From assembly GCA_937894775.1 (NCBI GenBank), contig CALAXC010000153.1, positions 17,802-81,801 on the forward strand: a stretch of DNA of 64,000 nucleotides. The letters run 5' to 3'. Below the pieces are notes generated by a model that was given only the letters and a program-made list of their open reading frames with translations, had not been told where the DNA came from and did no database searches. A program made the translations under genes and the position numbers. Below, piece by piece: positions 15,883 through 39,827 of the stretch (positions within the stretch are counted from its first letter, which is position 1; each line of letters starts with the position of its first letter). The DNA comes from an uncultured Clostridia bacterium. GTDB taxonomy: Bacteria > Bacillota > Clostridia > Oscillospirales > CAG-272.

Positions 15883-15922
15883 ACTTTTTATTGAAAAATG
15901 TTGAAAAAGTTGCAAAAAAGTA

Positions 15923-16280: not shown

Positions 16281-16295
16281 TTTCGGGAGGTTAAG

Positions 16296-16583: not shown

Positions 16584-16595
16584 GAGGGAAAAAAC

Positions 16596-17132: not shown

Positions 17133-17134
17133 TC

Positions 17135-17181
17135 GTGACAAAAGTCACAGTGGGAGGGAGAAAAATTTTTCGAATTCTCCC
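17135..17181 (+). promoter_or_regulatory. Two hairpins in the nusG-rplK spacer (possible attenuator or L1-binding leader element)
   Basis: GTGAC-aaaa-GTCAC (17135-17148) and GGGAGAA...TTCTCCC (17156-17181). No T-tract follows, so this is not a clear terminator. Function is not established from sequence. Confidence 0.25.
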
Positions 17182-17213
17182 GTAAATTCACCACATTGGA
17201 GGTATTTTAAATC

Positions 17214-17639
17214 ATGGCAAAGAAAGTAATGGGCTATATTAAATTGCAGTTGCCCGCCGGAAAAGCAACTCCTCAGCCCCCTGTAGGTCCGGCACTTGGT
17301 CAGTACGGTGTAGCGATTCCCGTATTTACAAAAGAATTTAATGAAAGAACAAAGAATGATATGGGTCTTATCATCCCTGTAGTTATTACAGTATATGCAG
17401 ACCGTTCATTCACATTTATAACTAAGACTCCTCCTGCGCCTGTTCTTATAAAGAAGGCAGTAGGTATTGAGTCAGGATCTGCAAAGCCTAACAAGACAAA
17501 GGTAGCAAAGCTTACCAAAGAGCAGGTTCGTAAGATAGCAGAAACAAAGATGCCCGACCTTAACGCAGCAAGTATCGAGACCGCGATGAGCATGGTTGCA
17601 GGTACTGCACGTAGTATGGGCGTAGAAGTTGAAGACTAA
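17214..17639 (+). CDS. rplK: 50S ribosomal protein L11
   Basis: 141 aa, '[22 protein letters not shown]'. Confidence 0.95.
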
Positions 17640-20865: not shown

Positions 20866-20907
20866 ATGACGGATGATTTTTATTAGAAAAACATTCGTCA
20901 TTTTTTT
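20866..20907 (+). terminator. Terminator after rnhA
   Basis: ATGACGGATG...CATTCGTCAT stem (one mismatch) followed by a T7 run. Confidence 0.6.
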
Positions 20908-20936
20908 GAAAAACATCAATTTTTTACTGTAAAATA

Positions 20937-20965
20937 TTGAAAAAATATTTAATATATGATATAAT
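20937..20965 (+). promoter_or_regulatory. Near-consensus sigma-A promoter heading the 20.9-39.8 kb operon
   Basis: TTGAAA (20937-20942), a 17-nt spacer, then TATAAT (20960-20965) with an extended -10 TG at 20957-20958. The predicted TSS (~20972) excludes the track TTG start at 20969. Confidence 0.6.
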
Positions 20966-20998
20966 GTATTGGATAATGCTATTTTTAGGACGTTTAAT

Positions 20999-21844
20999 AT
21001 GCAATTAATAAAAAATGAAAGATTTGATGAGGAAAGAGCTTTTTATTCAAGCAAAGAAGTAAAGCTTATAGAATGTAGCTTTGACGGCATAGCCGACGGT
21101 GAAAGCGCTTTTAAAGAAAGCTCTGATATTGAGATAGAGGATTGTTTCTTTAATTTGAGATATCCGTTTTGGCACGATAAAAACATATTGATAAAAAATT
21201 CAAAAATGACTTCGCTCTGCAGGGCGGCAATTTGGTATTCTGACAGCATAAGTGTTCAAAACACAGATATGCACGGAATAAAAGCATTAAGAGAGTGCAA
21301 AAACGTTGAAATAATCAATAGCGATATAATATCTACCGAGTTTGGATGGCTTTCCGAAAATATTATCCTTGATTCAACAAGAGCGGAAGGCGAATATTTT
21401 ATGTTTATGTCAAAAAACATAAACGCAAGGGAATTGAGCTTTAAAGGAAAATATTCTTTTCAGTACATAGAGAATGCGGTTTTTGAAAATTGTGATATAG
21501 ACACTAAAGATGCTTTTTGGCACGCAAAAAACGTGCTTGTTAAAAATTGTCGGATAAACGGTGAATATCTTGCTTGGTATAGCGAGAATATCACTTTTGA
21601 AAATTGTATTATTTCAGGAACACAGCCTTTGTGCTATTGCAAGGGCTTGAAACTTATAAATTGCGAGATGAACGGTGCGGATCTCTCTTTCGAGCTTTCC
21701 GACATATATGCAACCCTTAATTCGTACGTTATAAGTGTTAAAAATCCGTTGTCAGGGTATATAGAGCTTCCGTCAGTCGGTGAGATTATTCTTGATAACG
21801 TAAATTCTGAATGTGAAATTTTTGTAACACAACACAATGATTGA
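20999..21844 (+). CDS. Beta-helix repeat protein (DUF3737-like)
   Basis: Starts at ATG 20999 (MQLIKNERF). Repeated ~22-aa units ending in 'I.N(S/C)' with W(H/Y) pairs (FWHDKNILIKNSKM, IWYSDSISVQNTDM, FWHAKNVLVKNCRI, AWYSENITFENCII). From memory this resembles DUF3737, a right-handed beta-helix. Confidence 0.55.
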   Translation: MQLIKNERFDEERAFYSSKEVKLIECSFDGIADGESAFKESSDIEIEDCFFNLRYPFWHDKNILIKNSKMTSLCRAAIWYSDSISVQNTDMHGIKALRECKNVEIINSDIISTEFGWLSENIILDSTRAEGEYFMFMSKNINARELSFKGKYSFQYIENAVFENCDIDTKDAFWHAKNVLVKNCRINGEYLAWYSENITFENCIISGTQPLCYCKGLKLINCEMNGADLSFELSDIYATLNSYVISVKNPLSGYIELPSVGEIILDNVNSECEIFVTQHND

Positions 21845-21861: not shown

Positions 21862-23556
21862 ATGAAGATGGTACTTAGTTTACTTTCAGTCGCAATACTT
21901 TTGATTGCGATATTTGAAATTATAATGGAAACGGTCAAGGCTGTTAATAAGGGCTTGAAAAAATCCCTTGTTACGTTAGCTTCAATTATGCTTTCTATAT
22001 TTTTGTCCTTGGTATTGACACAACCGGTGTCAAATCTTTTGGTAAACCCGATAGCAAATTTATTGAAAAAGCTTGTGAATCTTTCGGCGCTTGAGAATAC
22101 TGTTCCAAGCTTGCCGTTAGTGATTGGTGCTTATGCTGATGCATTGATATCACCGCTTATATTTTTGATATTATTCTTTTTGATCAGGGCGATAATCGCA
22201 ATCGTTGTTTTGATCGTTATGCGTTCGAGAGAAAAAAAGAAGATCGATACTAATAATTATGAAAACGAGGATGCTCCTGCGTTTAAGAAAAACCCCAAAG
22301 CCGCAAGCGGAGTAGTGGGATTTGTGTGCGGTATTTTGTTGATAACAACTTTTACAGCGCCTATTATGGGAACTCTTAAGGTCGCAGAAAAAACTTTTTC
22401 CGCAGTTAATAATAATTCCGATGTTTACGGAGCTAAGATCAATTCAAAAGCAGTTTCGGTTATCAAGCTTTTTTCAAAGGATATGATAGGAAACGCATTG
22501 TATTATTGCGGTGGAAACCTTATATACAAAGCAAGCGCTACGTCGATGCTTAACGATAATTATTTTCAGCTTGAAAATGAAGCCGTTCAAACGGTAAACA
22601 CGGCAGACGATCTTATGCTTGTTACGAGTATACTTGGAAATATAAATTCTTCAACAGAGGAGCAGAGAAACTCAATGAAGGTTCTCGGCAAGGAAATAAA
22701 TAAAGCAGAAACGCTTAAAACTGTTGCCGCGGATATAGTTCCGGAGCTCTCAAAAAATTGGCTTGACGGAAAACCTTACTTGGGTACTGATAAGCCTAAA
22801 TTCAATAAGATCTCGGAAAGCGTTTTTAATAAAATGCTTTATGTGTGTAAATCGAGTACTGTTGATACTGTAGGTGATGACCTTAATACTCTTTTGAATG
22901 TTTATATGATAGCATATGAGCATGATATGTTGGTTTCGGGAGATTATAAAACGGTAATTGAAACAGCCAGCAGAACCGGTGCTTTTGATCTCATAAGACA
23001 AGAACTGAGTAAAAACAGAAGAATGGCAGGTATTACTTTAGATATCGATACGATGTCGATACGTACAATAGCATCTGCAATTCAGTCCTTTAACTTGGAA
23101 AACTATGATATTCTTATGAATAACATAACTAATACGCTTAACGTTGCGCTCAAATATGAGGGCGAAGCAAGAAAGCAGTATATTACCGATCTTACAAGAC
23201 AGTATATTAATTCTTACGGAATCAATATTGGCGAGGCTGAAACTATTAAGTTGGCTGAAAAACTTAATGATGAAGTTATCGGCAATAGAAAGAGCGTGTC
23301 TATTGACGATGTTAGATCATTCTGGGATAAATATTCTGTGAAGAATAAGGATAATAATACTCAGGTACAGCAAACTCCCGTTATATCTGTACCCGATCAG
23401 ACGGTTGATGATACTGTTGAAGGAGAAACAGATTTGGACACAGAGAATGAAGGCGGAGAAGGTTATCCCGAAAATCCTGAGTCTTATGCGGATGGATATG
23501 TTGAGCCTGAAAACGGGCAGGAAAATATTGAAAACGAGTATAATAGCATCGCATAA
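21862..23556 (+). CDS. Polytopic membrane protein with ~390-aa soluble domain and acidic tail (N-terminal TM bundle weakly CvpA-like)
   Basis: 564 aa. About 5 hydrophobic segments in the first 180 aa. The C-terminal 60 aa is D/E/N/G-rich. Starts 17 nt after the preceding gene, with RBS AGGAG. Confidence 0.6.
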   Translation: MKMVLSLLSVAILLIAIFEIIMETVKAVNKGLKKSLVTLASIMLSIFLSLVLTQPVSNLLVNPIANLLKKLVNLSALENTVPSLPLVIGAYADALISPLIFLILFFLIRAIIAIVVLIVMRSREKKKIDTNNYENEDAPAFKKNPKAASGVVGFVCGILLITTFTAPIMGTLKVAEKTFSAVNNNSDVYGAKINSKAVSVIKLFSKDMIGNALYYCGGNLIYKASATSMLNDNYFQLENEAVQTVNTADDLMLVTSILGNINSSTEEQRNSMKVLGKEINKAETLKTVAADIVPELSKNWLDGKPYLGTDKPKFNKISESVFNKMLYVCKSSTVDTVGDDLNTLLNVYMIAYEHDMLVSGDYKTVIETASRTGAFDLIRQELSKNRRMAGITLDIDTMSIRTIASAIQSFNLENYDILMNNITNTLNVALKYEGEARKQYITDLTRQYINSYGINIGEAETIKLAEKLNDEVIGNRKSVSIDDVRSFWDKYSVKNKDNNTQVQQTPVISVPDQTVDDTVEGETDLDTENEGGEGYPENPESYADGYVEPENGQENIENEYNSIA

Positions 23557-23612
23557 TATTTTAAGCGTTGTAGACCCGAGTAAAAACTGTAAATGAAAAT
23601 GGCAGGTAAGAT

Positions 23613-24308
23613 ATGGAAATAATTATGGCTTATATAGCAAAGGGAATCGTACTTCTAATGAGTATGGTACTGTATGTATACCTCTTTTCAGCGGTAGTCC
23701 CTAAATTTATTATGAAGCTCAGATGCAAAGTAAATACGTGCGACAGAGGTATAAGAAAATATAAATATCCTGATGGAAGATGCGTTGTTTACGAACCTGA
23801 AATTTCTTTAAGAAAATATGTTGAAAGTTATGCACTTTACGTTCGTGACGGATATAAATACATTACTTGTAAGACAACAGAAAATGTAAAAGATATAAGA
23901 TACGAGGTCTATGCTTTTGATATAAACAATAAGCTTATAGACATTTTATCGGTACTTGAAACTGTGAATAACGGTTGCACACAGGAAGTTTCTATCCCCC
24001 CTGAAACATCGTATGTAAGATTGGTGCTCAGACGAGTTGATAATGAGTATTATTCAAGAAAGATAGTGGCAGAATACTCTGTTTTCAGTTATTGTTTGTG
24101 CGCTATAGTAGTTGCTGTAGCAACACTTGTAGAGTCTTTTATCGTTTATTTCTTGGCAAAAGATATTTTGATCAGCGGCTTAAGACTCAGAATGACTCTT
24201 ATAGGAGTCGGCGGTATGTTTTTTATGGCAATTTTGATATCTTTGATAGTAGCGGGACTTACTGTTCTTGCATATCGCAGAAACTGTAAAAAGGTGATAA
24301 ACAAATGA
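23613..24308 (+). CDS. Hypothetical membrane protein
   Basis: 231 aa: an N-terminal TM, a ~120-aa beta-rich domain, then 2-3 C-terminal TMs. Its stop overlaps the next start (ATGA at 24305). Confidence 0.55.
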   Translation: MEIIMAYIAKGIVLLMSMVLYVYLFSAVVPKFIMKLRCKVNTCDRGIRKYKYPDGRCVVYEPEISLRKYVESYALYVRDGYKYITCKTTENVKDIRYEVYAFDINNKLIDILSVLETVNNGCTQEVSIPPETSYVRLVLRRVDNEYYSRKIVAEYSVFSYCLCAIVVAVATLVESFIVYFLAKDILISGLRLRMTLIGVGGMFFMAILISLIVAGLTVLAYRRNCKKVINK

Positions 24309-24952
24309 AAAGAGATTTGCAAATTATATCGAAAGGTCTGTACGATAAACCCAATGAAGATTGTGCACTGATTGCAGCAAAACAGTATATTTTTGCAAGG
24401 CAAAAAGGAAGAAAGATCTTAATTGTAAGATTCGAAAACCTTTCTAACCATAGAATAGAAGATATGTCATTTTGGTTGGTTCAGTTGAATTCTGACGGTG
24501 TTGAGATATCGTCTAAAAAGATAACATTAAAAAGTATCGGCTGTGCACCAAGGGAAATTTTTTCTCCAAATAATTGTTTTTACGTAGATAATAAATGCGT
24601 GGATTTTGAGATCCGAATGATTTCTGTTACTTCGGGCGGCTTTGAATATTTATCAAAAAACGGAGAGGGATTTGTAAAATATCCTCTTGAGGAGAGCTGG
24701 TCATATGCTTCATCGCAAAGTGTTTCGGGATATAAATATTCTAAAATACAAAATAACAGAGTTAAATTTTCAAAAGCAATTTTGATATTGGCATTGTTTT
24801 TAATCGCTCTTGCGGTTATTTGGCCATTCTTTGCAAATACGTTGTGTCCCGCAATTGCAGATGTTCTGGATAGATTTTGGAAAATGGTTGCTGAGGATAC
24901 GAAGGAACTTTTCAGACGTATTGCAGAGTCATTCGAGAAGAAGAATGTTTAA
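24305..24952 (+). CDS. Hypothetical protein with C-terminal TM anchor
   Basis: 215 aa with a soluble ~155-aa domain, then the TM 'AILILALFLIALAVIWPFF'. AAGGTG RBS. Translationally coupled to the previous ORF. Confidence 0.55.
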   Translation: MKRDLQIISKGLYDKPNEDCALIAAKQYIFARQKGRKILIVRFENLSNHRIEDMSFWLVQLNSDGVEISSKKITLKSIGCAPREIFSPNNCFYVDNKCVDFEIRMISVTSGGFEYLSKNGEGFVKYPLEESWSYASSQSVSGYKYSKIQNNRVKFSKAILILALFLIALAVIWPFFANTLCPAIADVLDRFWKMVAEDTKELFRRIAESFEKKNV

Positions 24953-24972: not shown

Positions 24973-27900
24973 ATGTTAAAACATAAATTTATAGTTGATA
25001 AGCTTAGCGAAGCGCAAAAGATAACGCTTTTGTCTGACGTGAGAGTGCTTTCGACTGCGGAATATACTAAGTTTGGTATTCCAATGCTCAGTATTGAATC
25101 GATATACGGATATAAAACTGATGTTTATCCAAGTCCGATAAGTCTTGCGAATTCTTGGAATGAGAGAATAGTTGGCGAGGTCGCAAGTGATATCGCAGTT
25201 TCTATGTCCGCAGAACAAATAAATGTAGCGGGAATACTCAGCCCTATTCCAAAACTTAATATGACAGATAGAGCGATTTCGGAAGATCCGCTTCTTTCGG
25301 CAAAGATCTCATCTGCGTATATGGGCTCTATAGGAAAGACGGGAATAGCGGTAACACTTGATGATATTTTCTTTGATGAGCAGGATGTTTCTTGCTTGGA
25401 TCATACGCCAAACAGTAGATTTTTAAATGAATTTGTTTACAGAGCGGTATCTAATACAGTTGAAAATAAAAAATGTCATGCTGTAACGGTTGGAGCAGAT
25501 ATAGATATAAAAGGCTACGAAAATATAAACAGTGAGATCACCGAGAGAGTCGCAACTATCGGCGGTGAAAAATTCGTTTTGTGTAAGAATATCGCACCGG
25601 AAGATACGGTTATAAGAATCGTAAAGGGGCAGATATGCTTAGACGGCTGTGAGCCTGTTCTCAAAGCGGCTATCGATAGATATGCACGTTTGAAAGAGGG
25701 AATAAAGCGAGGCAGAGTTACGGTATGCGAGCTTGAAGCTGAGATAGAAAACGGAAGCGCTTTCCCACCTGAAAAGATAGATGAGGCGGTAGACAAGGTT
25801 ATAGATTTTGCTTTTGAAATGACAAATGCGAATAAAGGTAAGCTTGCTTCCTATACCCCTACTTCAACAGTGGTGAAAAATGCTGCTTATGAATCAACGG
25901 TCCTTTTGAAAAACTATAAAACAGTTTTGCCGTTAAAGCCGGGTACTCTTGTAACTTTGGCAGGAGATATATTGGTGAATTATAACGGAGAAGACGCGGA
26001 TTATTCGGATAAAGCAAATGAAGCTGCATATTATCTCAGAGGTCTTGGCTGTGCTTCTCAAGGATTTGTCCGTGCATATTCTATGGCAGAAGACAGAAGC
26101 GATAAGCTTTTTATGCAAATGGAAGGATCTGCGCTGAACACCGATACGGTAATTCTCTTTATGGGAACTAATCCCCAAAAAGAGAAGGCAATTACCAGAA
26201 CCGAGAATCTGTATCTCCCCGCAAATCAGCTTGCTGCCTTGGAGAAGCTTTATAAGATGGGTAAAAAGATAATCGCTGTAGTGTCAAGCGATTATGCAAT
26301 AGATGTTACTTTTGCAGACAAGGTTGACGCACTTTTGGTAGCTCCGTTGAATACAAAATATGGCGTTGAAGCGGTATTCGATATCATTACAGGCAGAATG
26401 GGCCCGGTAGGACGACTTGCGACAACTTGGTATAAAAATACAGATAGGGCAAATAAAAAACATAGATTTTATTGTTCAATGCCAAACTCAAAGGTCGGCA
26501 CTTATTTGGGTTACAGATATTATGATAAATCCGATTATGATGTGGGTTATCCTTTCGGATACGGATTGGCATTTTCAACCTTTGTTTATTCAAAGCTTTC
26601 GGTTCAGGGAACTAACGTTGTTTTCACCGTAAAGAATAAAGCTAAGGTTGCGGGAACCGAAGTAGTCCAAGTTTATTTAGGTATTAATAATTCAGCAATT
26701 CAACGACCTAAAAAGGAGCTTGTCGGATTTGAAAAGATATATCTTCAGCCGGGAGCTTCGACAACAGTTTCGATTCCTATGTCGAATATAGAAAGCTTTG
26801 ATCCCGAAAGTAAACGGTGGATTATGGAGCGTGGCGAATACACAGTATATGTAGGCTCTTCGGTTAAAGATATAAAGCTTACAGCGAAGGTGTCGCTTGG
26901 ACAGGATATTGTGAATTCTCCTGCGGAAGATCCGTCCGATTATTTACAGTCGGAAAGTAATATTATTTCAAACAGATACACATTGGAGGCAGATTATAAG
27001 CTTATGAAAAGGAATATTAGAAATATAGTATTTGGTATAGGCGCCCTTGTTTTGGCGGTGGCTATGTTTGTCTTCTCGATATTTTCGGGAAAGGTAAGTA
27101 TTTTCTTAAACGTTGTTGCGTCTATATTGGCTTTGGCGGGAGTGGTGTTCTTTATTTTGGAAGGTACTGACCGTAAAAAAGCGCATAACGAAGAAAGAAA
27201 CCGTGTAAATGAAGCGAATAAGGCTCATTTTGAAAATGCAACGGATATTGCAGATTTCTCTACAAATGCCGTATTTAGCGAGGAATTCGACAGAGTCGAG
27301 CAGAAGATATCTTTCACAAAAGATACGGCTCCCTCAAAGGCAGAAAGCTATCTTGCTTTTGTAAATGAGAGTCTTACATATGATGCAGCAATTTCTCAGT
27401 TTATTGCGTTTGCCGCTGCTAAAGGTTTTAAGTTTAATGAAAGCAACGCACGCGAGCTTTTTGCAGCTATGTCTGCATCAAGACTTATCATCACAAAGGG
27501 AATGTCTAATGACGTATTTGCCGAGCTTGTAAGAGTAGTAAGCGAATATTTTGGAACTCCTATGTTTGTGGATGCGGTTGATTATTCTTATGAAAATGAT
27601 AATTCCGCACTCTTTAAGGGGGTAGGTGCTGCAAAGCAGAGAACAAATCTCACCAATGCTATTTATGCGGCAATTGAAAGCTCCGATAAGGTTCATATTG
27701 CAGCGCTTACAGATGTTAATTTTGCAGATCTTTCAAAGTATTTTGTTCCGTTTGCAAGATATATTCGTAATCCACGTAATGCAAACATTATTTCTACGGT
27801 CGATCAGACAGGTGAAAAGACTCAGATCACGATGCCACAGAATATGTGGTTTATGCTTAATTTGAGAATGGGCGAGACCATGAGTAATATACCTGAATAT

Positions 27901-28350
27901 ATCACTGAGCTTGCTTCGGTTATAAAGGTGGATTATATAAGAACTGCTCCTACAATGCTTTATACGCAGATTGTTCCGTTTAGTTATTATCAGTTTGATT
28001 TCTTGCTTGATAAGGTGAAAACAAGATTTATTATTTCTGAGGATACTTGGAAGAAGTTTGACCGTTTTGAAGCTTTTGTAAACGGTGTTTCTCCATATGC
28101 TCTTGAAAATAGAGTATGTATAGCCGTTGAGAGATTTTTTGCAGTATTCTGTGCCGCAGGCGGAGATACGAATGAGGCGATCGACAGAGCTATCAGTGCA
28201 AGAATACTTTCTTCGGTGATTATAACGCTTAATAATGCCGAGGACAAGGAAAATAGAAATCTTACCGAAAAGCTTGAGATGATATTCGGCGAAGAAAACA
28301 TAGATGTTTGCCGAGCTTTCATCAGAGCGGCAGGATCAAATCTTATCTGA
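24973..28350 (+). CDS. Fusion protein: GH3-like domains (N-domain, alpha/beta sandwich, Fn3-like), a 2-TM hairpin, and a degenerate McrB-like AAA+ domain
   Basis: 1125 aa. GH3-type blocks: 'KLSEAQKITLLS', 'GIPMLS', 'ISEDPLL', 'STVLLKNYKTVLPL', 'GPVGRLATTWY', 'GYRYYDKSDYDVGYPFGYGLAFSTF', 'EVVQVYLG'. TMs at about nt 27024-27165. The C-terminal ~390 aa aligns colinearly with the neighbouring ATPases but has destroyed NTP motifs (see findings). Confidence 0.75.
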   Translation: MLKHKFIVDKLSEAQKITLLSDVRVLSTAEYTKFGIPMLSIESIYGYKTDVYPSPISLANSWNERIVGEVASDIAVSMSAEQINVAGILSPIPKLNMTDRAISEDPLLSAKISSAYMGSIGKTGIAVTLDDIFFDEQDVSCLDHTPNSRFLNEFVYRAVSNTVENKKCHAVTVGADIDIKGYENINSEITERVATIGGEKFVLCKNIAPEDTVIRIVKGQICLDGCEPVLKAAIDRYARLKEGIKRGRVTVCELEAEIENGSAFPPEKIDEAVDKVIDFAFEMTNANKGKLASYTPTSTVVKNAAYESTVLLKNYKTVLPLKPGTLVTLAGDILVNYNGEDADYSDKANEAAYYLRGLGCASQGFVRAYSMAEDRSDKLFMQMEGSALNTDTVILFMGTNPQKEKAITRTENLYLPANQLAALEKLYKMGKKIIAVVSSDYAIDVTFADKVDALLVAPLNTKYGVEAVFDIITGRMGPVGRLATTWYKNTDRANKKHRFYCSMPNSKVGTYLGYRYYDKSDYDVGYPFGYGLAFSTFVYSKLSVQGTNVVFTVKNKAKVAGTEVVQVYLGINNSAIQRPKKELVGFEKIYLQPGASTTVSIPMSNIESFDPESKRWIMERGEYTVYVGSSVKDIKLTAKVSLGQDIVNSPAEDPSDYLQSESNIISNRYTLEADYKLMKRNIRNIVFGIGALVLAVAMFVFSIFSGKVSIFLNVVASILALAGVVFFILEGTDRKKAHNEERNRVNEANKAHFENATDIADFSTNAVFSEEFDRVEQKISFTKDTAPSKAESYLAFVNESLTYDAAISQFIAFAAAKGFKFNESNARELFAAMSASRLIITKGMSNDVFAELVRVVSEYFGTPMFVDAVDYSYENDNSALFKGVGAAKQRTNLTNAIYAAIESSDKVHIAALTDVNFADLSKYFVPFARYIRNPRNANIISTVDQTGEKTQITMPQNMWFMLNLRMGETMSNIPEYITELASVIKVDYIRTAPTMLYTQIVPFSYYQFDFLLDKVKTRFIISEDTWKKFDRFEAFVNGVSPYALENRVCIAVERFFAVFCAAGGDTNEAIDRAISARILSSVIITLNNAEDKENRNLTEKLEMIFGEENIDVCRAFIRAAGSNLI

Positions 28351-28377: not shown

Positions 28378-29703
28378 ATGTTAGAATTAGCTCGCTGTTT
28401 TGGAGGAAAGGCATTAGCATTTGATAAAGAAGCTATGCTTGATATGTTTACCTCTGAAATTGCAATAATCATATATATTTTTATTATTCTTGCGATAGTT
28501 GCGGTTCTTGTTGTAGCGCTTATTTTCTTCCAGCGCAAAGATGAATCGGATGAGGAAAATATTGCACCTGACAATGCGGGTGCTCAAGCTCCAAACGATG
28601 ATGAGGTCGAGAAGGAAGAAACCACCGAGCGTTTTTGTATGTTGAGTGCGATCGACAGAAGAAGAAACAGCTATGGACACGTGAAGTACGCAACAAACGT
28701 AACGCTTGAAGATTTCTGTGAGAATTTCAGGAATTATGCGGCATACAGACACGGATTATACTATGATATAGAAGATATAAGAAGATTCATAGCAGGAATG
28801 TCAGTGTCACATATGCTTATATTACAGGGTATGTCGGGAACAGGTAAAACCTCGTTGGCACACGCGATAGGATCATTTGTTGATAATAGCTCAACGATAA
28901 TTCCCGTGCAGCCAATGTGGAAGGAAAGAACCGACCTTATAGGTTATTATAACGAATTTACAAGAAGATTTAACGAGACATTATTGCTTACAAAGATGTA
29001 TGAGGCAAATTATAGCAAAGACGTCTATGTAACGGTTCTCGATGAAATGAATATTGCAAGAGTAGAGTATTATTTTGCTGAATTTTTGTCTTTGCTCGAG
29101 CTTCCGAATCCTGAGGAAAGATACCTCGATGTAGTATCGGACAAATGGGAAAACGATCCCACTCAGCTCAAAGACGGAAGAATAAAGCTTCCTACAAATA
29201 TGTGGTTTGTGGGAACGGCAAATAATGACGACTCAACATTCCTTATATCGGATAAGGTTTATGACCGAGCAATGATACTTGACCTCGATCAGAAAACCGA
29301 AAGATTCGTAGCGCCGCCAACCGAAAAGATGATAATATCTGCAGAACAGTTCGACGCACTTGTAGTATCTGCGCAGAAGGAATATGAGATAAGCAGCCGA
29401 AACAAGAAGAGACTTGAAGCGTTCGATGAATATCTTATAGCGCATTTCCACGTAACGTTCGGAAACCGAATTATGAAGCAGATATTGACATATATCCCCG
29501 TATATATAGCATGCGGCGGAGAAGAGCTTTTTGCGCTTGACGATATACTTTCAAAGAAGGTAATAAGAAAGCTCGAATCACAGAATCCTATATACTTCAA
29601 GAATGCGGCAGACGGATTGATCGCGTATATGGACGATCTTTTTGGCGCAGAAAATATGACTCTCTGCAAGGAGCATATAAGAAGAATTTTGAGAAATGCT
29701 TAA
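28378..29703 (+). CDS. Membrane-anchored McrB-like AAA+ NTPase, copy A
   Basis: 441 aa. One TM (IAIIIYIFIILAIVAVLVVALIFF) and an acidic linker. Walker A 'GMSGTGKT' (28828-28851), Walker B 'VLDEMN' (29035-29052), and 'GTANNDDS' (NxxD-type, 29221-29232). 'PVQPMWKERTDLIGYY' and 'EYYFAEFLSLLE' parallel the McrB blocks 'QFHPSYSYEDFVEGY' and 'IFGELMMLIE' (from memory). Confidence 0.75.
   Translation: MLELARCFGGKALAFDKEAMLDMFTSEIAIIIYIFIILAIVAVLVVALIFFQRKDESDEENIAPDNAGAQAPNDDEVEKEETTERFCMLSAIDRRRNSYGHVKYATNVTLEDFCENFRNYAAYRHGLYYDIEDIRRFIAGMSVSHMLILQGMSGTGKTSLAHAIGSFVDNSSTIIPVQPMWKERTDLIGYYNEFTRRFNETLLLTKMYEANYSKDVYVTVLDEMNIARVEYYFAEFLSLLELPNPEERYLDVVSDKWENDPTQLKDGRIKLPTNMWFVGTANNDDSTFLISDKVYDRAMILDLDQKTERFVAPPTEKMIISAEQFDALVVSAQKEYEISSRNKKRLEAFDEYLIAHFHVTFGNRIMKQILTYIPVYIACGGEELFALDDILSKKVIRKLESQNPIYFKNAADGLIAYMDDLFGAENMTLCKEHIRRILRNA
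28624..29703 (+). repeat. 1080-bp direct repeat, copy 1 (ATPase core)
   Basis: Matches 31736-32815 at a constant offset of 3112 nt. Every stretch I compared by eye was identical. The + frame and two minus-frame track ORFs (29233-29451 = 32345-32563; 29289-29669 = 32401-32781) translate identically. Flanks diverge immediately (c vs t upstream; ttttta vs aaaaaa downstream). Confidence 0.9.
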
Positions 29704-29736: not shown

Positions 29737-31428
29737 ATGAATCAATTGGATGTTTATTACAGAGCCCAGCTTGATTATAAAAATGCGATAGAGTCCGATA
29801 AAGAGTGCTCGAAATTAAACTCTGCGTTCCTTTCAGCTGATGCAGAAAGCGACCGTTTGGTAATAACAAGAGCGTTTTGCACGGTTGATGAAGAATGGGT
29901 TGCCGAGATAGAAAAGGGCTTGGTTTTTATAGAAAAAGCTATAAAAGAAGACCGTCAGTTTATTCTTTCTCAAGGCGAGGTAGTTCCGATAGAAAAGGTT
30001 AAGTCTGTGTCAAAGGAATCGGTGCAGCATCTTGCAAAGCACAGTGATCTTATAACCGAGTATGAAGAGGGAGAGGATATTATTCCCGATAAGCTTTATA
30101 CGGTTGAGAGATTAAACGATTATACCGTTTATGAGAACAGATTCCTTTATATGTTGCTTTGCTATCTTCGAGATTTTGTTTCGCTAAGATATACGAAGAT
30201 CGTTGAAGCAACAAATAAATATGATGCCAAGCTTTCGATCAACAAAGATTTTATGATTGGTAAGGAAACTATCTCTTATACCGTAAATATACATGACGTA
30301 AGACAGGATGATGAATATCTTAAGGAGCACAATACCGCAAAGGATATCATCGATAGAATAATGCTTATTCTTAAAGCGATACTTGCATTTTTGGCGACAC
30401 CTCTTATGGAATATCAGGCAAAAGTCCCAATGATAAAACCCCCTATAACCAAGACTAATGTTCTTAAAATGAATAATAATTTCAAGGGCGCAGTAGCACT
30501 TTATGATTATATTATTTCTTATGATAAACAAGGCTTTGAAATCGAAAATCAGGTCACAAATATATCTCCGTTTACAATCGAGATGGGCTCTGATTTTGCT
30601 TTGGCAGGTGGAATGATGACGTTTCTTTCTTATCAGTATGGTTTAGGACTTAAGAGTGAGCTTAAGGCTTCCTACGATAAAGAAGAAGAACGTCGCAAGG
30701 ATGAGCTTGTAAAGCGAAACAGAGAGCTTATTGCAGCGCTTGATAAGAGACTTCAAAGATCTGAGATAACTCATAGCGAATACATAATCAAGCTCGAAGA
30801 ACAGATAAAGCTCCTTGAAAAGCAGTGTGAACGTTTAGAGTTTATGCGCAAAGAGGTCGAGCGTCTTAAAACAAGTGAAAATAAGCTTTTGGCGGATATA
30901 AAGATATCTTATCTTGAAATATCTAAGCTCAAGAGTGATATGCTTTCTAAAGAACATGAGCATGCAGAGGCGGTCGAGCGCGTTCAAAGAGAGTGCTCCA
31001 ACAAAATGCTCGAAATGTCGCAGGCATTTAATCAGGAGAAGATAGAGGCTACCGCTTCGCTTGTGGCAGAGGTAAGCGGCTTGCAAAACAGAGTTGCTGA
31101 GTTGATTGAAAGCAACAGGGTTGAACGTGAGGAATCCAAGAAGGAACTTAATGCACTTCAGGAAGAATATGATAAGCTGATGCAGGATTTCAACGAGCTT
31201 CAGGAAACGAAACGTCTTATAAACGCAAGGCTCAGATCCTATCTTTTTAAGAACGGTGAAGTTCCCGCAGGTGAGGATAACACCGATAAAGAGAAATTTG
31301 ATGAACTTGAAAATGAACTTGAGGTATTTATTAAGTTCTATAAAAAAGAATGGAATAAAACCAAAAAGCGTATACGTAAGGAGCTTTTGAATATCAAAAA
31401 TATCAGAAAGCAGGATGAGCAGGAATGA
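29737..31428 (+). CDS. McrC-N-terminal-like (DUF2357-like) protein with ~200-aa C-terminal coiled coil; no nuclease motif seen
   Basis: 563 aa. 'YTVYENRFLYMLLCYL' resembles the ENR(F/L) block of McrC-family N-domains (recalled, not searched). Residues ~310-500 are heptad-like and E/K/L/Q-rich. It lies between the two McrB-like genes. Confidence 0.5.
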   Translation: MNQLDVYYRAQLDYKNAIESDKECSKLNSAFLSADAESDRLVITRAFCTVDEEWVAEIEKGLVFIEKAIKEDRQFILSQGEVVPIEKVKSVSKESVQHLAKHSDLITEYEEGEDIIPDKLYTVERLNDYTVYENRFLYMLLCYLRDFVSLRYTKIVEATNKYDAKLSINKDFMIGKETISYTVNIHDVRQDDEYLKEHNTAKDIIDRIMLILKAILAFLATPLMEYQAKVPMIKPPITKTNVLKMNNNFKGAVALYDYIISYDKQGFEIENQVTNISPFTIEMGSDFALAGGMMTFLSYQYGLGLKSELKASYDKEEERRKDELVKRNRELIAALDKRLQRSEITHSEYIIKLEEQIKLLEKQCERLEFMRKEVERLKTSENKLLADIKISYLEISKLKSDMLSKEHEHAEAVERVQRECSNKMLEMSQAFNQEKIEATASLVAEVSGLQNRVAELIESNRVEREESKKELNALQEEYDKLMQDFNELQETKRLINARLRSYLFKNGEVPAGEDNTDKEKFDELENELEVFIKFYKKEWNKTKKRIRKELLNIKNIRKQDEQE

Positions 31429-31444: not shown

Positions 31445-32815
31445 ATGACGAAAAATGTTAAAAGAAATATAAAAAGAGTTATTTTACTTATCGTTTCTCT
31501 TGCGCTTGAGGGAATACTCGCATTTATGCTTATAGGCGGTATTGCAAATCACGGGCTTGCAGAATCTAAAGTAATAACGCTTATAATAATTCTTATGCTT
31601 ATGATACCGCTTGCTTTGTTGGCACTTTTGTTTGTTGTTTCTTTTAGAAAAAAGCAACAAGCAAAAGTATCCAAAAGGCAAGAGACCGATAAAAAAACGG
31701 GTAAGAAGAAAAAGAAAAACGAAGATAACGGTGATACCGAGCGTTTTTGTATGTTGAGTGCGATCGACAGAAGAAGAAACAGCTATGGACACGTGAAGTA
31801 CGCAACAAACGTAACGCTTGAAGATTTCTGTGAGAATTTCAGGAATTATGCGGCATACAGACACGGATTATACTATGATATAGAAGATATAAGAAGATTC
31901 ATAGCAGGAATGTCAGTGTCACATATGCTTATATTACAGGGTATGTCGGGAACAGGTAAAACCTCGTTGGCACACGCGATAGGATCATTTGTTGATAATA
32001 GCTCAACGATAATTCCCGTGCAGCCAATGTGGAAGGAAAGAACCGACCTTATAGGTTATTATAACGAATTTACAAGAAGATTTAACGAGACATTATTGCT
32101 TACAAAGATGTATGAGGCAAATTATAGCAAAGACGTCTATGTAACGGTTCTCGATGAAATGAATATTGCAAGAGTAGAGTATTATTTTGCTGAATTTTTG
32201 TCTTTGCTCGAGCTTCCGAATCCTGAGGAAAGATACCTCGATGTAGTATCGGACAAATGGGAAAACGATCCCACTCAGCTCAAAGACGGAAGAATAAAGC
32301 TTCCTACAAATATGTGGTTTGTGGGAACGGCAAATAATGACGACTCAACATTCCTTATATCGGATAAGGTTTATGACCGAGCAATGATACTTGACCTCGA
32401 TCAGAAAACCGAAAGATTCGTAGCGCCGCCAACCGAAAAGATGATAATATCTGCAGAACAGTTCGACGCACTTGTAGTATCTGCGCAGAAGGAATATGAG
32501 ATAAGCAGCCGAAACAAGAAGAGACTTGAAGCGTTCGATGAATATCTTATAGCGCATTTCCACGTAACGTTCGGAAACCGAATTATGAAGCAGATATTGA
32601 CATATATCCCCGTATATATAGCATGCGGCGGAGAAGAGCTTTTTGCGCTTGACGATATACTTTCAAAGAAGGTAATAAGAAAGCTCGAATCACAGAATCC
32701 TATATACTTCAAGAATGCGGCAGACGGATTGATCGCGTATATGGACGATCTTTTTGGCGCAGAAAATATGACTCTCTGCAAGGAGCATATAAGAAGAATT
32801 TTGAGAAATGCTTAA
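31445..32815 (+). CDS. Membrane-anchored McrB-like AAA+ NTPase, copy B
   Basis: 456 aa with a 2-TM hairpin N-terminus and a Lys-rich linker. From 'TERFCMLSAIDRR' to the C-terminus the protein is identical to copy A (359 aa). Confidence 0.75.
   Translation: MTKNVKRNIKRVILLIVSLALEGILAFMLIGGIANHGLAESKVITLIIILMLMIPLALLALLFVVSFRKKQQAKVSKRQETDKKTGKKKKKNEDNGDTERFCMLSAIDRRRNSYGHVKYATNVTLEDFCENFRNYAAYRHGLYYDIEDIRRFIAGMSVSHMLILQGMSGTGKTSLAHAIGSFVDNSSTIIPVQPMWKERTDLIGYYNEFTRRFNETLLLTKMYEANYSKDVYVTVLDEMNIARVEYYFAEFLSLLELPNPEERYLDVVSDKWENDPTQLKDGRIKLPTNMWFVGTANNDDSTFLISDKVYDRAMILDLDQKTERFVAPPTEKMIISAEQFDALVVSAQKEYEISSRNKKRLEAFDEYLIAHFHVTFGNRIMKQILTYIPVYIACGGEELFALDDILSKKVIRKLESQNPIYFKNAADGLIAYMDDLFGAENMTLCKEHIRRILRNA
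31736..32815 (+). repeat. 1080-bp direct repeat, copy 2 (ATPase core)
   Basis: See copy 1. Confidence 0.9.
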
Positions 32816-32842: not shown

Positions 32843-34738
32843 ATGTTTAAAGATAGTAAATATGTAAAGTTAATATGCATAGTCTTGGTTTTTTCTGCTT
32901 TGGCGTTGGCACTTTCGATGGGGATTTTAGCTATCAGCGCTTTGCGGAATGAAACTTTTGCTGATCCGCTTGACGGTTATCAGGAAAACCTCGAGAAAGA
33001 AACGGTGACCCTTCCGCCTCCTGTTCCCCCTGACGGACCCGATCCTGACGACGATCCGGACGGAGATAATACAAGCCCGTATCAAGTGTATTCCGATCAA
33101 GCTGTAGATGCTCTCTATTTGAGGGGGGAGGCTTTTGGAAATTATAACGGAAAAGGATGGGATGAGGCAGTTCCGTATACAAATTTGATAGATGATAAAT
33201 ATCCTGCAACCTATCTTGGAAGTTTGATGATAGAAGAGTGGAGCCGAGCTTGGGGCATGTCTCCGATAGCTCTTTCTATAAAGCCGAATGATGCTGAAAT
33301 GATCATACCTTCCTATACGGCAACATCGGAATATGTTGCAGATCTTATGGGAACAACGGATTATAAAGAAGAGTATTTAATTCCGGAAGATGATGTTACG
33401 GCAAATCCAAAGAGCTCAGAAATTTACCGTATGCATTATTATAATTACACAAATGTCAGCAAGAAAAAGGAAACTCCTACCACTTATGCACTCTATGAAA
33501 GGGTATACCGCGACTTTGTATATGACCATTATCTTTATGTAGATGATACAACAAAGTCCTATATGCTTGATATTATAGATAAGCAAAAGTTTGATTTTTA
33601 TGATCAGAATGTTGCTCAGAATATTTCGGATTATGTTTCCGGATTAGGCGAATATCTCATTACTTATGATCAAGCCCTTGATCAAGAGGAAAATATGGTT
33701 ATTGCCTTTATTGAAAAATATAAAGCAGGAACGTGTAAGCATTTTGCAAGTACTGCCACACTTATTTTCAGATCAATGGGAATTCCCGCAAGATATGTTA
33801 CGGGATATATGACAGCAACAGAAGCGGGAGAATGGGTGCAGCTCGATAATTTCAATTCACACGCTTGGGTAGAAATATATGTTGACGGCTTTGGCTGGAA
33901 AACGGTAGAGGTAACACCCGCACAGCAAAAAGATCCTATAGAGATAAAGCCTGTTGATGTTAAGAAAAAATTTGACGGAACTCCGATTTTCCCTGAATAT
34001 AAGATAGAAGGCTTTGAAGAGTACGAAAAGCTTGGATATACTTATGAGGTGGTTATAAGCGGAGAACGTACCGAACCGGGTGTGTCTGAAAGTATTATTG
34101 AAGATATAAAGATATTCGATTCCAATAAAACTGAAGTAACAGATAATTTTCTATTTGAAAAAAAGCCGGGAAAAATTATTGTTCTTGTTAGCGGAGTTGT
34201 TTTGAGGAGCGAGTCGATATCTCAGGTATATGACGGAATTCCGAGGACTTCGGATCTTTCAAAATGCAGTATAGATTTTGAAGATGGTGCAAAGCTTTTG
34301 GAAGGACATACTATCAGAATGGAAGCGAGATTACTTGAGACTAAGATAGGTGTTCATTCGCATGCATTTGATGTTATTGTGGAAGACAGTGAAGGTAATA
34401 ATGTTACGGATGTGTATCTTTTCTCGTATGATTTAGGTAAATATGAAATATCTCCGATATCTATAACCATTAAAGCGGGAAGCGCTGAACAAGAATATCT
34501 TCCTGGAAAGATACTTACTTGTGATCAGTATGAAATAACATCAGGAAAGCTTATGGAAGGTGATTATATTCCCGATGATATAGTTATTACCAAAGGAGAG
34601 CAAAAGGTACCGGGAAGAAGTCCTAACACAATAGATCGTAGTAAAATAGTTATTTTAAATTCCGAGGGTGAAGATGTTTCGTCTAACTATGTAATTCGTA
34701 CAGAGGTTGGAGAGTTACGTCTTTATGAAAGTGAATAA
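32843..34738 (+). CDS. N-terminally anchored transglutaminase-core protein with C-terminal YDG-type repeats
   Basis: 631 aa. Signal-anchor 'LICIVLVFSALALALSMGILAI' and a Pro/Asp-rich linker. TGase core 'GTCKHFASTATLIFRSMGIPARYVTGY...HAWVEIYVDGFGWKTVEVTP'. The C-terminal ~260 aa holds repeats containing 'YDG' and 'EGH'. Confidence 0.75.
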   Translation: MFKDSKYVKLICIVLVFSALALALSMGILAISALRNETFADPLDGYQENLEKETVTLPPPVPPDGPDPDDDPDGDNTSPYQVYSDQAVDALYLRGEAFGNYNGKGWDEAVPYTNLIDDKYPATYLGSLMIEEWSRAWGMSPIALSIKPNDAEMIIPSYTATSEYVADLMGTTDYKEEYLIPEDDVTANPKSSEIYRMHYYNYTNVSKKKETPTTYALYERVYRDFVYDHYLYVDDTTKSYMLDIIDKQKFDFYDQNVAQNISDYVSGLGEYLITYDQALDQEENMVIAFIEKYKAGTCKHFASTATLIFRSMGIPARYVTGYMTATEAGEWVQLDNFNSHAWVEIYVDGFGWKTVEVTPAQQKDPIEIKPVDVKKKFDGTPIFPEYKIEGFEEYEKLGYTYEVVISGERTEPGVSESIIEDIKIFDSNKTEVTDNFLFEKKPGKIIVLVSGVVLRSESISQVYDGIPRTSDLSKCSIDFEDGAKLLEGHTIRMEARLLETKIGVHSHAFDVIVEDSEGNNVTDVYLFSYDLGKYEISPISITIKAGSAEQEYLPGKILTCDQYEITSGKLMEGDYIPDDIVITKGEQKVPGRSPNTIDRSKIVILNSEGEDVSSNYVIRTEVGELRLYESE

Positions 34739-34756
34739 TAAGTAAAGGGTGGTATA

Positions 34757-37700
34757 ATGTTATACGATAGCTACCATAAAAAAATATCGAAGGTCGTTGA
34801 TGTTTTACGCAAGGTATTTAAGCACATAGTCCTGATCAGCATTGTTTTAGGACTTTTGCTTGCGTTTCTCATTACTTTTATGGTTACAAAGGGAATGATT
34901 ATTGACGATAAAAATGTGTCTAATAAATTCGCTGTAACTTACGGAGAAGACCTTCCATTGAAGACGAGCGCTATGTTCGCTTCACATAAATATCAATATT
35001 CCGAAAACGGAAGAAAATGGAGCGATGCTTTTCCGTCAGAACCGGGAACATACCGGGTCAGGGCAGTTGCTAAAGGAATATTCGGAAATGAGAGATACGG
35101 AAAGATCTATACTTTTGTTTTAAAAGCAAAGGAAATTGATGTTTCTGTAGTCGAAGATGAAATTATATATGGAGAACTTCCAACGGTTGAAGCTAAGCTT
35201 TCTTATGAAGATACTATCAGCTGTGACGGTTTTGTTTATGAAGACCGCTTTTCGGCAAGCACTAAGGTAACTCCGAATGCAGAGGACATTACGATTCTTA
35301 ATAAAGACGGTGAAGATGTTACCTCTTCTTATGAGATAAACGTTGAAAGTACCGACATCAACGTGCTTCAAAGAGAAATTCTGGTTACTGTATCCGATCA
35401 GTCAATGATATATAATGATGTAAAGTTTAGTTATGACGGATACGAATTAAGTAACGGAACTTTAGCCGACGGTGATACTATTCAGGCGGTATTTGATAAG
35501 TATCTTATAGATGTAGGTGAGATCGAGAATACCCCCCAGCTTAAGGTCGTTACATCAGACGGTTTTGATATTTCAATGCATTATTCTATCCAAACACAGA
35601 TAGGTAAGCTTAAAGTTGACTACCGTCCGTTGATAATTAAAACGCCAAGTGCTGAAAAGGTATATGATGCAAACGCTCTTTCAAATTCCGAGTACGAGAT
35701 AGTAGGGGAATACGGTCTTGTTGAAGGACATACGATGATCTGTATTTCCAACACTTCTATAACGGACGTTGATGAGGTTGAGAACGTTCTTGATTTTGAG
35801 ATCAAGAATGCGGCAGGAGAAGATAAGACTCCTAACTATTCTTTCTTCTATGAAAGAGGAATGCTTAAAGTAACCGAAAGACCTCTTAATGTTTCGTTTG
35901 TGAGTGGAACTTGGATGTATGATAACAAGTGGCATAAGGGTGAAATAAAGCTTGAAGGCCTTTGCGAAGGACATAAAGCGACTTATGATATACCGAGTAT
36001 AATCGATACAGGTAAGATAGAAAACTCTACCGAGATAACCGAGATTTATGATGCTCACGGAAAAGATGTTTTCTTGAATTATGATATCATTTACGGTGAT
36101 TTCGGTACTCTTGAAGTTACAAAACGTCCGATAACTATTACTACTGAGAGTCAGACTTTGACTTATGACGGTGTTATCAGAGTTTTTGATAAGTATGAAA
36201 TTACATCTGAAATAAAGCTTGCTGACGGTGAAGAGCTTCAGCTTACCTTTAACGAGTTCTACAAGGCAGGAACTTATGACAATAATATTGTTTCTGCTAT
36301 GATAAACTACAGCCGAACAGGTACAGGCGTTCCGGATGAAAACGGTTGGTATCAGGTAGGCAGCAGTGGAGTTGCCGATGCTGCTCAAAACTATGAGATA
36401 ACTGAGGTAATAGGAAAGATAATTATTAATAAGTGTCCGATTACTTTGCGTCCTGTTGATATAGCGCATGTGTATGACGGTACGTTGATTGTTCCTACTG
36501 AATTCGATATCGTTTCGGGAGAGCTTCCTCCAAGTCATACTATATATCCCGAGTATATAGGTTCACTTACCGATGCGGGAGAAATAGATACGGATATAGA
36601 TCTTACAAAGACTATAGTTAAAGTGCTTCGTGATGACGGTTCGGAAGAAGATGCTACCGAGAACTTTGAGATCACAGTTCAAAAGGGTAAGATCACTATC
36701 AGTAAAAGACAGATCACCGTTAGAACCGAAACAGTTGAAAAGATATACGATGGAACTCCGTTATCAAGTAATAATTGGGAGATCGTAAGCGAAACACAGC
36801 TTGTTGAAACTCATACGCTTAATCTTGAATGTAATGTTTCAAGAATTTATCCAGGTGAAAGTGATAATCTTGTAGATCTTGATTCTGTCACGATCGTTGA
36901 TGAAAATGAAAATGACGTTCTTAAGAATTATGAGATAACTTACGAGTACGGTAAGCTTATAGTACATAAGCGACCGATAACTATTGTTGCTTCAAGTGCG
37001 AGAAAGACCTATGATGGAACACCTCTTGTTTCTACAGAATATTCTATCTTGGATGCTGATTTAGAGGATTACGGATTATTGGAAGGTCATACCCTCAAGG
37101 CAACGACAAGCGGTTCTATAACCAACAAGGGTGAGACCTCAAATAAGATCGATATCGATAAAGTGAGAATACGTAATGCTTCAAATAAAAACGAAACAGA
37201 GTATTATGAAATTACTTGTTCTGACGGAACACTTACTATTGATCCGATAATTGTCAATATCACTACTTCGTCTGTAAATAAAATCTATGACGGTACCTCT
37301 ATAAATCCTAAGATCGATACCGTAGTCGATTCGGATATCGAAGAGAAAATCATTGCGGGACACACTTATTCGATCACAGTAGCGGATAAGGAGCTTATAA
37401 ATGTAAAAGATTCTCCGCTGGAAAATGAAGCGATTTTGGTAGTTTACGATGAAAAAGGTGCAGATATGACTGCACTTGGAAATTATGAGGTAAACGGAAC
37501 TTGGGGAAGTATTATTATTCTTCCCAGAGTTATTAAAATACTTCCTAAACCATCAGTAACGAGTAAGGTTTATGACGGAAATCCGTTGACTTGTACCGAT
37601 TATGAGGATATTTCAAATGCTGAATTAAACGAAGGACTCCTCAGCAATCATTTGCTGGAGCAAATAGAATTTAATTCTCAAACAGATGCAACTGATTTCT

Positions 37701-39784: not shown

Positions 39785-39791
39785 AATAAAA

Positions 39792-39827
39792 AGCTATCAC
39801 AAATGAAAATTTGTGATAGCTTTTTTG
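39792..39827. terminator. Bidirectional hairpin terminator closing the operon
   Basis: AGCTATCACAAAT-gaaa-ATTTGTGATAGCT perfect 13-bp stem, flanked by an A-run upstream and a T6 run downstream. It sits between convergent genes. Confidence 0.8.

Follow-up and report, generated by a model that had tools for sequence, protein, structure and literature searches.

The open reading frame g4 lies in a 64-kb stretch of DNA from an uncultured Clostridia bacterium (GenBank assembly GCA_937894775.1, contig CALAXC010000153.1, positions 17,802–81,801), referred to here as the window. It encodes a protein of 1125 amino acids (aa) in which a module similar to glycoside hydrolase family 3 (GH3) is followed by a membrane hairpin, a linker and a C-terminal AAA+ domain similar to McrB. 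Alignments over the g4 family establish that the predicted product is a conserved double pseudoenzyme, confidently predicted to fold, whose residues do not allow the catalysis of either family that it derives from, AAA+ or GH3. An earlier reading of the DNA letters (the sequence-only reading) had proposed that its C-terminal domain arose as a paralogue of the McrB-like NTPases encoded next to it and has been inactivated. Sequence, fold and a family-wide loss of nucleotide-handling residues all agree with this proposal. The gene is part of a widespread conserved nine-gene membrane operon of gut Clostridia (g1–g9), in which g5 and g7 encode the live ATPases and g6 an McrC-like protein.

A BLASTP comparison of g4 aa positions 733–1125 with the g5 product yields one colinear alignment, aa 814–1118 against aa 122–435, with 24% identity over 326 columns and E-value = 3e-19 (composition adjustment). 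All five peptide pairs that had been aligned by eye in the sequence-only reading are found in it. Profile alignment gives the same answer, in that an hhalign comparison of 12 dead domains with four ATPase cores shows a probability of 99.7% and E-value = 1.2e-25 over 320 columns. With the dead domain as tblastn query, only the two ATPase genes match in the whole window (E-value ~2e-17). The homology therefore stands as claimed, but the extent first given for the domain, ~390 aa, does not. The domain covers aa ~800–1121, ~325 aa, and positions 733–799 are a linker behind the second membrane helix.

An AlphaFold2 (AF2) model of g4 aa 773–1125, made with an 88-sequence alignment, has a mean predicted local distance difference test score (pLDDT) of 94.9 and a predicted template modelling score of 0.91. 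An AAA+ fold is obtained, with the alpha/beta core and helical lid, and not some other fold. In a Foldseek search of the model the best PDB matches are E. coli McrB, 6hz4 and 6ut6 (probability 1.00). The next matches are MCM, NorQ, CbbQ, BchI, RavA, BrxL and dynein, all with probability 1.00; these proteins belong to the helix-2-insert clade of AAA+ proteins. An AF2 model of full-length g4 made without an alignment has a pLDDT of 36, and no conclusions are drawn from it.

At the sequence level, a direct search of the PDB with the dead domain gives no significant match to any chain, McrB included. The dead domain and the operon ATPase have the lid motifs GN[KR], ACGG[DE]..A.D and FGE.N...C in common, and these motifs are lineage-specific. 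Several of the columns conserved in both the dead and live families are lid motifs that E. coli McrB is without. Because of these lid motifs and the lack of a PDB sequence match, the dead domain is taken as a paralogue of the operon's own ATPase lineage, which is its closest relative.

Motif columns were compared by aligning 112 full-length g4-family dead domains with 119 live ATPases. In the live set all Walker A, Walker B, NxxD and arginine-finger columns are at least 95% conserved, and all but one are 99–100% conserved. In the dead set the catalytic columns are variable, the commonest residue accounting for 13–54%. The Walker A sequence GMSGTGKT of the live ATPase is GMSNDVFA in g4, and the P-loop pattern GxxGxGK[ST] is found in the C-terminal domain of 0 of the 112 family members. 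The Walker B sequence LDEMN is LTDVN in g4 and departs from the hhhhDE pattern; the live set is invariant (100%) at D and E, and at these columns the commonest residues of the dead family are T (31%) and G (29%). NNDD, 100% conserved among the live ATPases, is replaced by RMGE in columns that vary within the dead family. These three losses, with TD in place of the Walker B DE, are as the sequence-only reading described them, and loss of the arginine finger is added here. The live YDRA aligns with TELA (aa 978–981), the arginine being replaced by a hydrophobic residue. The live arginine, R297, is 100% conserved, and the aligned column of the dead family consists of V, I, L or T. In a phmmer alignment the YDRA arginine of the live ATPase aligns with the RRR arginine-finger motif of E. 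coli McrB.

Nineteen non-catalytic columns are conserved in the dead and live sets alike. Among them are S836, P934, P955/N957/W959/F960, N1046, D1071, F1105/G1106 and C1113. P934 belongs to the NP loop after the Walker B helix, and P955/N957/W959/F960 (PxNxWF) to the strand leading to sensor 1. An exhaustive HMMER profile search of 1.84 billion representative proteins shows 985 matches to the g4 family at E < 1e-3, and 223 clusters at 50% identity are found at E < 1e-30. Most of the best 150 matches are 1050–1300 aa in length with the dead domain at the C-terminus. Word-indexed searches had given three matches with the dead domain and one with a 12-sequence profile; the rarity that these suggested is overturned by the exhaustive search. 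Because the 223 clusters share one architecture, the nineteen columns are kept and the model is of such high confidence, the dead domain is predicted to be a maintained pseudo-ATPase and not a decaying remnant.

Four family members, P0066, P0075, P0080 and P0108 (~460–515 aa), have an apparent start just upstream of the hairpin and carry the hairpin and dead domain without the GH3 module. These may be true variants that have no GH3 part, or their gene calls may be truncated. A further sequence, P0003, has the appearance of a fusion of an aminotransferase with the dead domain. It comes from locus L001, an ENA scaffold with a related operon that is an assembly chimera. At positions 1–12025 of this scaffold, genes of a phi29-like phage (for the major capsid protein, the Gp16 ATPase and a protein-primed DNA polymerase B), together with part of a SufS-like aminotransferase, run in frame into the dead AAA+ domain. 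P0003 is excluded from the profiles.

The N-terminal module of g4 matches two GH3 domains in Pfam, GH3_C (PF01915, E-value = 1.5e-23) and Fn3-like (PF14310, E-value = 1e-20), both of which are also found in GH3 beta-glucosidases such as BglB (7ms2). A phmmer alignment with beta-glucosidase B 7ms2 is colinear over g4 aa 51–643 (E-value = 3e-48). However, the GH3 N-domain is below the Pfam cut-off in g4 (16 bits vs 27), and the g4 family is without the nucleophile Asp, KH and DGPxG residues of the BglB type. The SDW nucleophile Asp, KH and DGPxG are catalytic and −1 subsite residues of GH3. The 7ms2 SDW motif aligns with I-V-K in g4, V217 being at the nucleophile position, and the KHF motif aligns with D-D-I. 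KH[FYW] is found in 0 of the 112 family members and [ST]D[WYF], anywhere in the nucleophile region, in six. In this set the columns aligned with the nucleophile, KH, the DGPxG-motif region and the acid/base region are all variable. The GH3-like half of g4 is thus a predicted pseudo-glycosidase across the family. Sugar sensing by this module was considered and is unlikely since the canonical −1 subsite residues are gone. The database name of the family, GH3 C-terminal domain-containing protein, misleads carbohydrate-enzyme counts in gut metagenomes.

A second difference from the BglB-type enzymes is the fusion of the module to a membrane hairpin and the dead AAA+ domain. A hydropathy scan places the hairpin helices at aa 685–703 and 711–730 with five residues between them. 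The outer flanks are rich in lysine and arginine on both sides, KLMKRNIRN before the hairpin and DRKKAHNEERNR after it. Neither the hydropathy scan nor a reading of the sequence shows a signal peptide at the g4 N-terminus. With no signal peptide and positively charged flanks outside both helices, the positive-inside rule would place the pseudo-GH3 and dead AAA+ modules both in the cytoplasm. The large accessory domain is thus GH3-like, as the sequence-only reading held, but that reading did not see that it is itself a pseudoenzyme, predicted to be cytoplasmic rather than outside the cell.

The live ATPase matches Pfam AAA_5 with 29.8 bits (cut-off 22). Its best PDB sequence matches by phmmer are E. 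coli McrB 6hz4/6ut6, and GMSGTGKT, LDEMN and NNDD are in register with 6hz4 without a gap. With these motifs intact, g5 and g7 are predicted McrB-like GTPases. The family is large, with at least 8000 clusters at 90% identity, and its members are publicly named "MoxR-like ATPase", a misleading label for the operon ATPases, or "hypothetical protein". PF27867 is annotated on the closest ATPase-1 orthologues, P0181–P0183, and is absent from the Pfam copy searched. PADLOC matches the ATPase to the candidate PDC-M26A (E-value = 1.5e-45) and shows no partner-gene matches beside it in the operon. The operon is not filed as a defence system on a match that is at the ATPase level only.

The neighbouring genes, counted as two live NTPases in the sequence-only reading, do not encode two different NTPases. 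The g5 and g7 products are identical over 359 aa and differ only in their N-terminal anchors. At the nucleotide (nt) level this identity is an exact 1080-nt direct repeat, which extends from the start of the soluble domain to the stop codon. In each of four genomes (the window, L001, L010 and L014) the ATPase pair is 99.3–100% identical, and between these genomes the identity is 66–75%. The within-genome value for L001, L010 and L014 is 99.3–99.8%, with the identity boundary at the same place. Both anchor types are recognisably orthologous across genomes. Distinct orthologous anchors together with near-identical cores within genomes show an old ATPase duplication whose cores are homogenised by gene conversion (concerted evolution). 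In agreement with this, most short-read contigs that carry the locus (L002–L013, L015–L020) end inside or just before an ATPase core. The repeat systematically breaks short-read assemblies here, which is probably why the operon went unnoticed.

Situated between the two repeat copies is g6; the direct repeats that flank it could mediate its deletion. The N-terminal domain of g6 is a McrC N-terminal domain, DUF2357 in Pfam (26.6 bits, cut-off 23.3), and six of six orthologues match, the window copy included. A profile of this domain shows no relative in the PDB, and DUF2357 membership rests on Pfam. The tail of ~240 aa has 18% E, 13% K and 12% L, and g6 orthologues match coiled-coil Pfam families. 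The L001 and L014 orthologues have longer, repeat-rich acidic tails. Searches with Pfam, NCBIfam and PADLOC find no nuclease or DNA-binding family in any operon product.

Gene order was followed in 13 loci, L002–L014, and in L001 as far as the contigs extend. L002–L014 are all from metagenome-assembled genomes of Eubacteriales/Clostridia from human and animal guts. The order g1-g2-g3-g4-ATPase-McrC-like-ATPase-transglutaminase-like 1-transglutaminase-like 2 is kept wherever contigs extend. An ATPase gene directly follows g4 in 11 of the 11 loci whose contig passes g4; the remaining two of the 13 contigs end before it. The live ATPase is 73–80% identical between genomes whereas the dead domain is 28–39% identical between the same genomes. 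Proteins g4, g6, g1–g3 and the transglutaminases are 19–49% identical between these genomes. All operon products except g6 have membrane helices by hydropathy scan. The g1 product is a 4-helix membrane protein with a weak CvpA/Colicin_V match. The start of g3 overlaps the end of g2 by 4 nt, and the g3 orthologue of L014 (2099–7603) is extended outside to 1834 aa by BspA-type leucine-rich repeats. This extension provides a predicted link of the operon to surface display.

The two transglutaminase-like proteins at the other end of the operon, g8 and g9, match Pfam Transglut_core with E-values of 3e-19 and 1.5e-21. They are paralogous, contain several copies of a module ending in '..DGEDVT.NY..' (DNA repeat family D2), and in one stretch match the cell-surface antigen I/II C2 domain. 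They are conserved in L001, L010, L014 and L015–L018. By the antigen I/II match g8 and g9 resemble proteins of the surface or adhesin type. From g0 to g9, neighbouring genes are separated by −4 to 56 nt. Two strong terminator-like hairpins, at 20276 and 39788, have no other between them, and the second is the probable end of the transcription unit. The short gaps and the absence of a strong internal terminator-like hairpin suggest that g1–g9 are co-expressed. A promoter-like site (20906–20965) with a near-consensus extended −10, TTGAAA-17-TATAAT with TG (11/12), is found before the DUF3737 gene upstream of g1. In the other loci the DUF3737 gene shows no synteny with the operon, and it may simply share the operon transcript here. 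Coordinates of all features are collected in Table 1.

Table 1. Positions of g4, its modules and motif remnants, and of neighbouring features. Positions are those of the window unless a locus is named.
Feature	Position	Strand	Description
g4	24973..28350	+	Open reading frame, 1125 aa: pseudo-GH3, 2-helix membrane hairpin, linker, predicted dead McrB-like AAA+ domain
Pseudo-GH3 module	24973..26950	+	aa 1–~660: degenerate N-terminal barrel, GH3_C sandwich, Fn3-like domain
g4 membrane hairpin	27025..27162	+	aa 685–730: IVFGIGALVLAVAMFVFSIF-SGKVS-IFLNVVASILALAGVVFFIL; hydropathy scan and sequence reading
Dead McrB-like AAA+ domain	27370..28335	+	aa ~800–1121: alpha/beta core and helical lid
Walker A remnant GMSNDVFA	27499..27522	+	aa 843–850, aligned to GMSGTGKT
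Walker B remnant LTDVN	27706..27720	+	aa 912–916, aligned to LDEMN
NxxD-equivalent RMGE	27865..27876	+	aa 965–968; arginine-finger equivalent TELA, aa 978–981, comes after
g5	28378..29703	+	McrB-like AAA_5 NTPase, anchor type 1 (one N-terminal membrane helix)
g6	29737..31428	+	McrC N-terminal domain (DUF2357) and E/K/L-rich coiled-coil tail, between g5 and g7
g7	31445..32815	+	Same McrB-like NTPase core, anchor type 2 (2-helix hairpin)
1080-nt direct repeat, copy 1	28624..29703	+	Exact; whole soluble ATPase core through stop codon
1080-nt direct repeat, copy 2	31736..32815	+	Exact; whole soluble ATPase core through stop codon
g1–g3	21862..24952	+	Three conserved membrane proteins, 564, 231 and 215 aa, always upstream of g4
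g3	24305–24952	+	215 aa: cytoplasmic N-domain, one membrane helix, short tail
g8 and g9	32843..39784	+	Signal-anchored transglutaminase-like proteins, 631 and 1675 aa, repeated extracytoplasmic modules
Terminator-like hairpin	39788..39825	+	17-bp stem and T-rich tail directly after g9
DUF3737 beta-helix protein gene	20969–21844		17 nt upstream of g1
ATPase gene pair, L001	12053–13396 / 15906–17282
ATPase gene pair, L010	7474–8796 / 10538–11896
ATPase gene pair, L014	10983–12311 / 14287–15699

Since g4 is predicted neither to bind or hydrolyse nucleotide nor to cleave glycosides, it would act as a structural or regulatory subunit. The complex would be a membrane-tethered McrBC-like GTPase assembly at the cytoplasmic side. 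If it works as E. coli McrBC does, the live g5/g7 cores would assemble with GTP into a ring that is plugged and stimulated by the g6 DUF2357 domain (Nirwan 2019 and Niu 2020, in the summary given by PMC11090510). The ring would lie against the inner membrane face because every subunit is N-terminally anchored. The dead domain would then be one fixed, non-hydrolysing ring position (a seam), or a lateral binder of the ring. Docking by direct AAA+-to-AAA+ contact, in either of these two forms, is favoured with a probability of roughly 0.55 because g4 keeps the anchor-linker-AAA+ layout, the NP loop, the PxNxWF strand and the lid motifs. A hetero-oligomeric ring of g4 with the GTPases is plausible, and the layout shared with the live subunits, the conserved NP loop and the PxNxWF strand are consistent with it. 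Through docking of g4, the motor would acquire the large pseudo-GH3 scaffold. The operon as a whole would couple cytoplasmic GTP hydrolysis to cell-surface events rather than to DNA restriction. Classical restriction is made less likely by the giant surface proteins, by the lack of a nuclease or DNA-binding domain among the families found and by the conservation of the operon structure.

A wider and more tentative reading is that of an envelope machine made from a McrBC motor and widespread in gut Clostridia. Here a membrane GTPase ring, with one core that gene conversion keeps identical on two anchor types, would be activated by the nuclease-less g6 and would have the doubly dead g4 as a fixed seam or stator, transmitting GTP-driven changes across the membrane to the giant transglutaminase-/adhesin-like surface proteins. 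If true, AAA+ machines would gain a new class, and McrB rings their first dedicated pseudo-subunit.

Several observations weigh against direct docking or against the role given to the operon. Without a trans-acting arginine, g4 as a ring member would disable two nucleotide sites, its own and one of a neighbour. The low identity of the dead domain between genomes relative to the ATPase fits a peripheral adaptor at least as well. Some lineages may have a GH3-less g4, in which case the core function can do without the GH3 scaffold, and the PADLOC match of the ATPase makes a defence role possible. As a peripheral adaptor, g4 would use the dead AAA+ fold only for binding. Contact with, for example, the coiled coil of g6 or a live subunit's lid would bring in the pseudo-GH3 module or the small membrane proteins, and the ring would be a homohexamer of g5/g7. 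Fast divergence next to an ultra-conserved ATPase and the lost arginine finger agree with this, and the homogenised pair of ATPase genes is as expected if ring interfaces must be identical. Against an adaptor count three features shared with the live subunits, the NP loop that follows the Walker B helix, the PxNxWF strand and the anchor-linker-AAA+ geometry, and the explanation is less likely than direct docking.

It is rather improbable that g4 is an inhibitor or checkpoint of assembly, in which a live protomer, capped by the dead domain, could not close into a hexamer before a signal, such as something bound by the pseudo-GH3 module or by g1–g3, lifted the block. Such a dominant-negative-like regulator encoded in cis would fit an AAA+ fold without any catalytic or trans-acting residue, tethered to the membrane beside the live subunits and carrying a large module with the potential to bind a ligand or partner. 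But the loss of the GH3 −1 sugar subsite makes a sugar signal unlikely, no regulatory domain was found and the idea is purely inferential. The last explanation, that the C-terminal domain is a decaying, functionless duplicate carried by a GH3-like protein, is largely refuted and has very little probability left. Loss of all active-site residues and fast sequence divergence would agree with a relic. A relic would not, however, be expected from a domain found at the same position in hundreds of divergent clusters, with about 19 columns conserved in common with the live family and a very confident AF2 model. In addition it diverges at the same rate as the rest of the non-ATPase proteins of the operon, and the possible GH3-less variants keep the hairpin and dead domain.

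Of known systems, E. coli McrBC (6hz4, 6ut6), a hexamer of the AAA+ GTPase McrB plugged by McrC, ranks first both for the dead domain, in structure, and for the live ATPases, in PDB sequence searches. Similarities are the Walker A, Walker B and NxxD spacing of the live subunits, one arginine of the RRR motif, and a partner gene with DUF2357. However, the operon ATPases have membrane anchors in place of the N-terminal DNA-binding domain, and g6 has a coiled coil instead of a PD-(D/E)xK nuclease. The Clostridia operon also adds a dead McrB paralogue and transglutaminase-like surface proteins, and its structure is conserved within Clostridia without the patchy look of a defence island. Type IV restriction by McrBC calls for a PD-(D/E)xK or other nuclease, within McrC or encoded beside it, and for an N-domain of McrB that binds DNA, and the Pfam, NCBIfam and PADLOC searches show neither in the operon. 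It looks like a restriction-enzyme motor re-used for another job.

A re-use of this type is found in PcdA of Staphylococcus aureus, a derived McrB-family protein that acts in division-plane selection (PMC10602043). Like the dead domain of g4, PcdA is of the AAA+ McrB lineage; it has a degraded Walker A, a Walker B without Glu and one lost arginine finger, and it works outside restriction (PMC10602043). However, PcdA keeps the Mg-chelating Asp, the sensor Thr, a putative arginine finger and NTPase activity, whereas g4 has lost every such residue. PcdA carries EVE domains and has neither an McrC-NTD partner nor an adjoining live paralogue, both of which are encoded with g4 (PMC10602043).

The CoCoNuT/CoCoPALM systems (Bell et al., eLife 2024; PMC11090510) have McrC homologues with coiled coils, often without a nuclease, as in g6. 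CoCoPALM GTPases are anchored in the membrane via an FtsB-like segment, and the operon ATPases are likewise membrane-anchored. However, these systems carry an NxD motif where the operon ATPase has the NxxD spacing in a gap-free alignment with E. coli McrB. In them the GTPase itself carries coiled coils, and the associated genes encode HEPN or other nucleases, or signal-peptidase/pilus products (PMC11090510). The sequence and the hydropathy scan show no coiled coil on g5 or g7, and Pfam, NCBIfam and PADLOC searches find no HEPN, nuclease, signal-peptidase or pilus partner genes. Membership in CoCoNuT/CoCoPALM is rejected on the spacing, the lack of a GTPase coiled coil and the lack of such partner genes, and only the coiled-coil McrC homologue is common to both. 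The words transglutaminase and glycoside hydrolase are absent from PMC11090510 and the supplements searched.

The nearest functional analogy for g4 is Torsin with LAP1/LULL1 (PMC4999309), the latter being membrane-tethered AAA+-like activators without nucleotide binding. As in the arrangement proposed for g4, a live AAA+ ATPase has as its partner an AAA+-like domain that is anchored in the membrane and free of nucleotide. LAP1/LULL1 supply the arginine finger that Torsin is without, whereas here the live ATPase keeps its arginine and the dead family has V, I, L or T. Torsin is situated in the eukaryotic endoplasmic reticulum lumen and not in a bacterial cytoplasm, and the lineages are unrelated.

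In the literature searched no description of the g4 or operon architecture was found. Dead paralogue subunits are a recurring means to asymmetric or regulated AAA+ rings, as in the clamp loader, ORC, dynein and Torsin-LAP1. McrB-lineage rings are already intrinsically asymmetric, and to our knowledge no dead paralogue subunit has been described for that lineage. What is new here is a candidate for a dedicated pseudo-subunit of a McrB-type motor, fused to a second predicted pseudoenzyme and encoded in an abundant, previously undescribed membrane operon. The operon thus offers a testable entry to what a nuclease-less, membrane-bound McrBC-like motor does, to how pseudo-subunits shape McrB-type rings, and to why two copies of one catalytic core stay identical by gene conversion.

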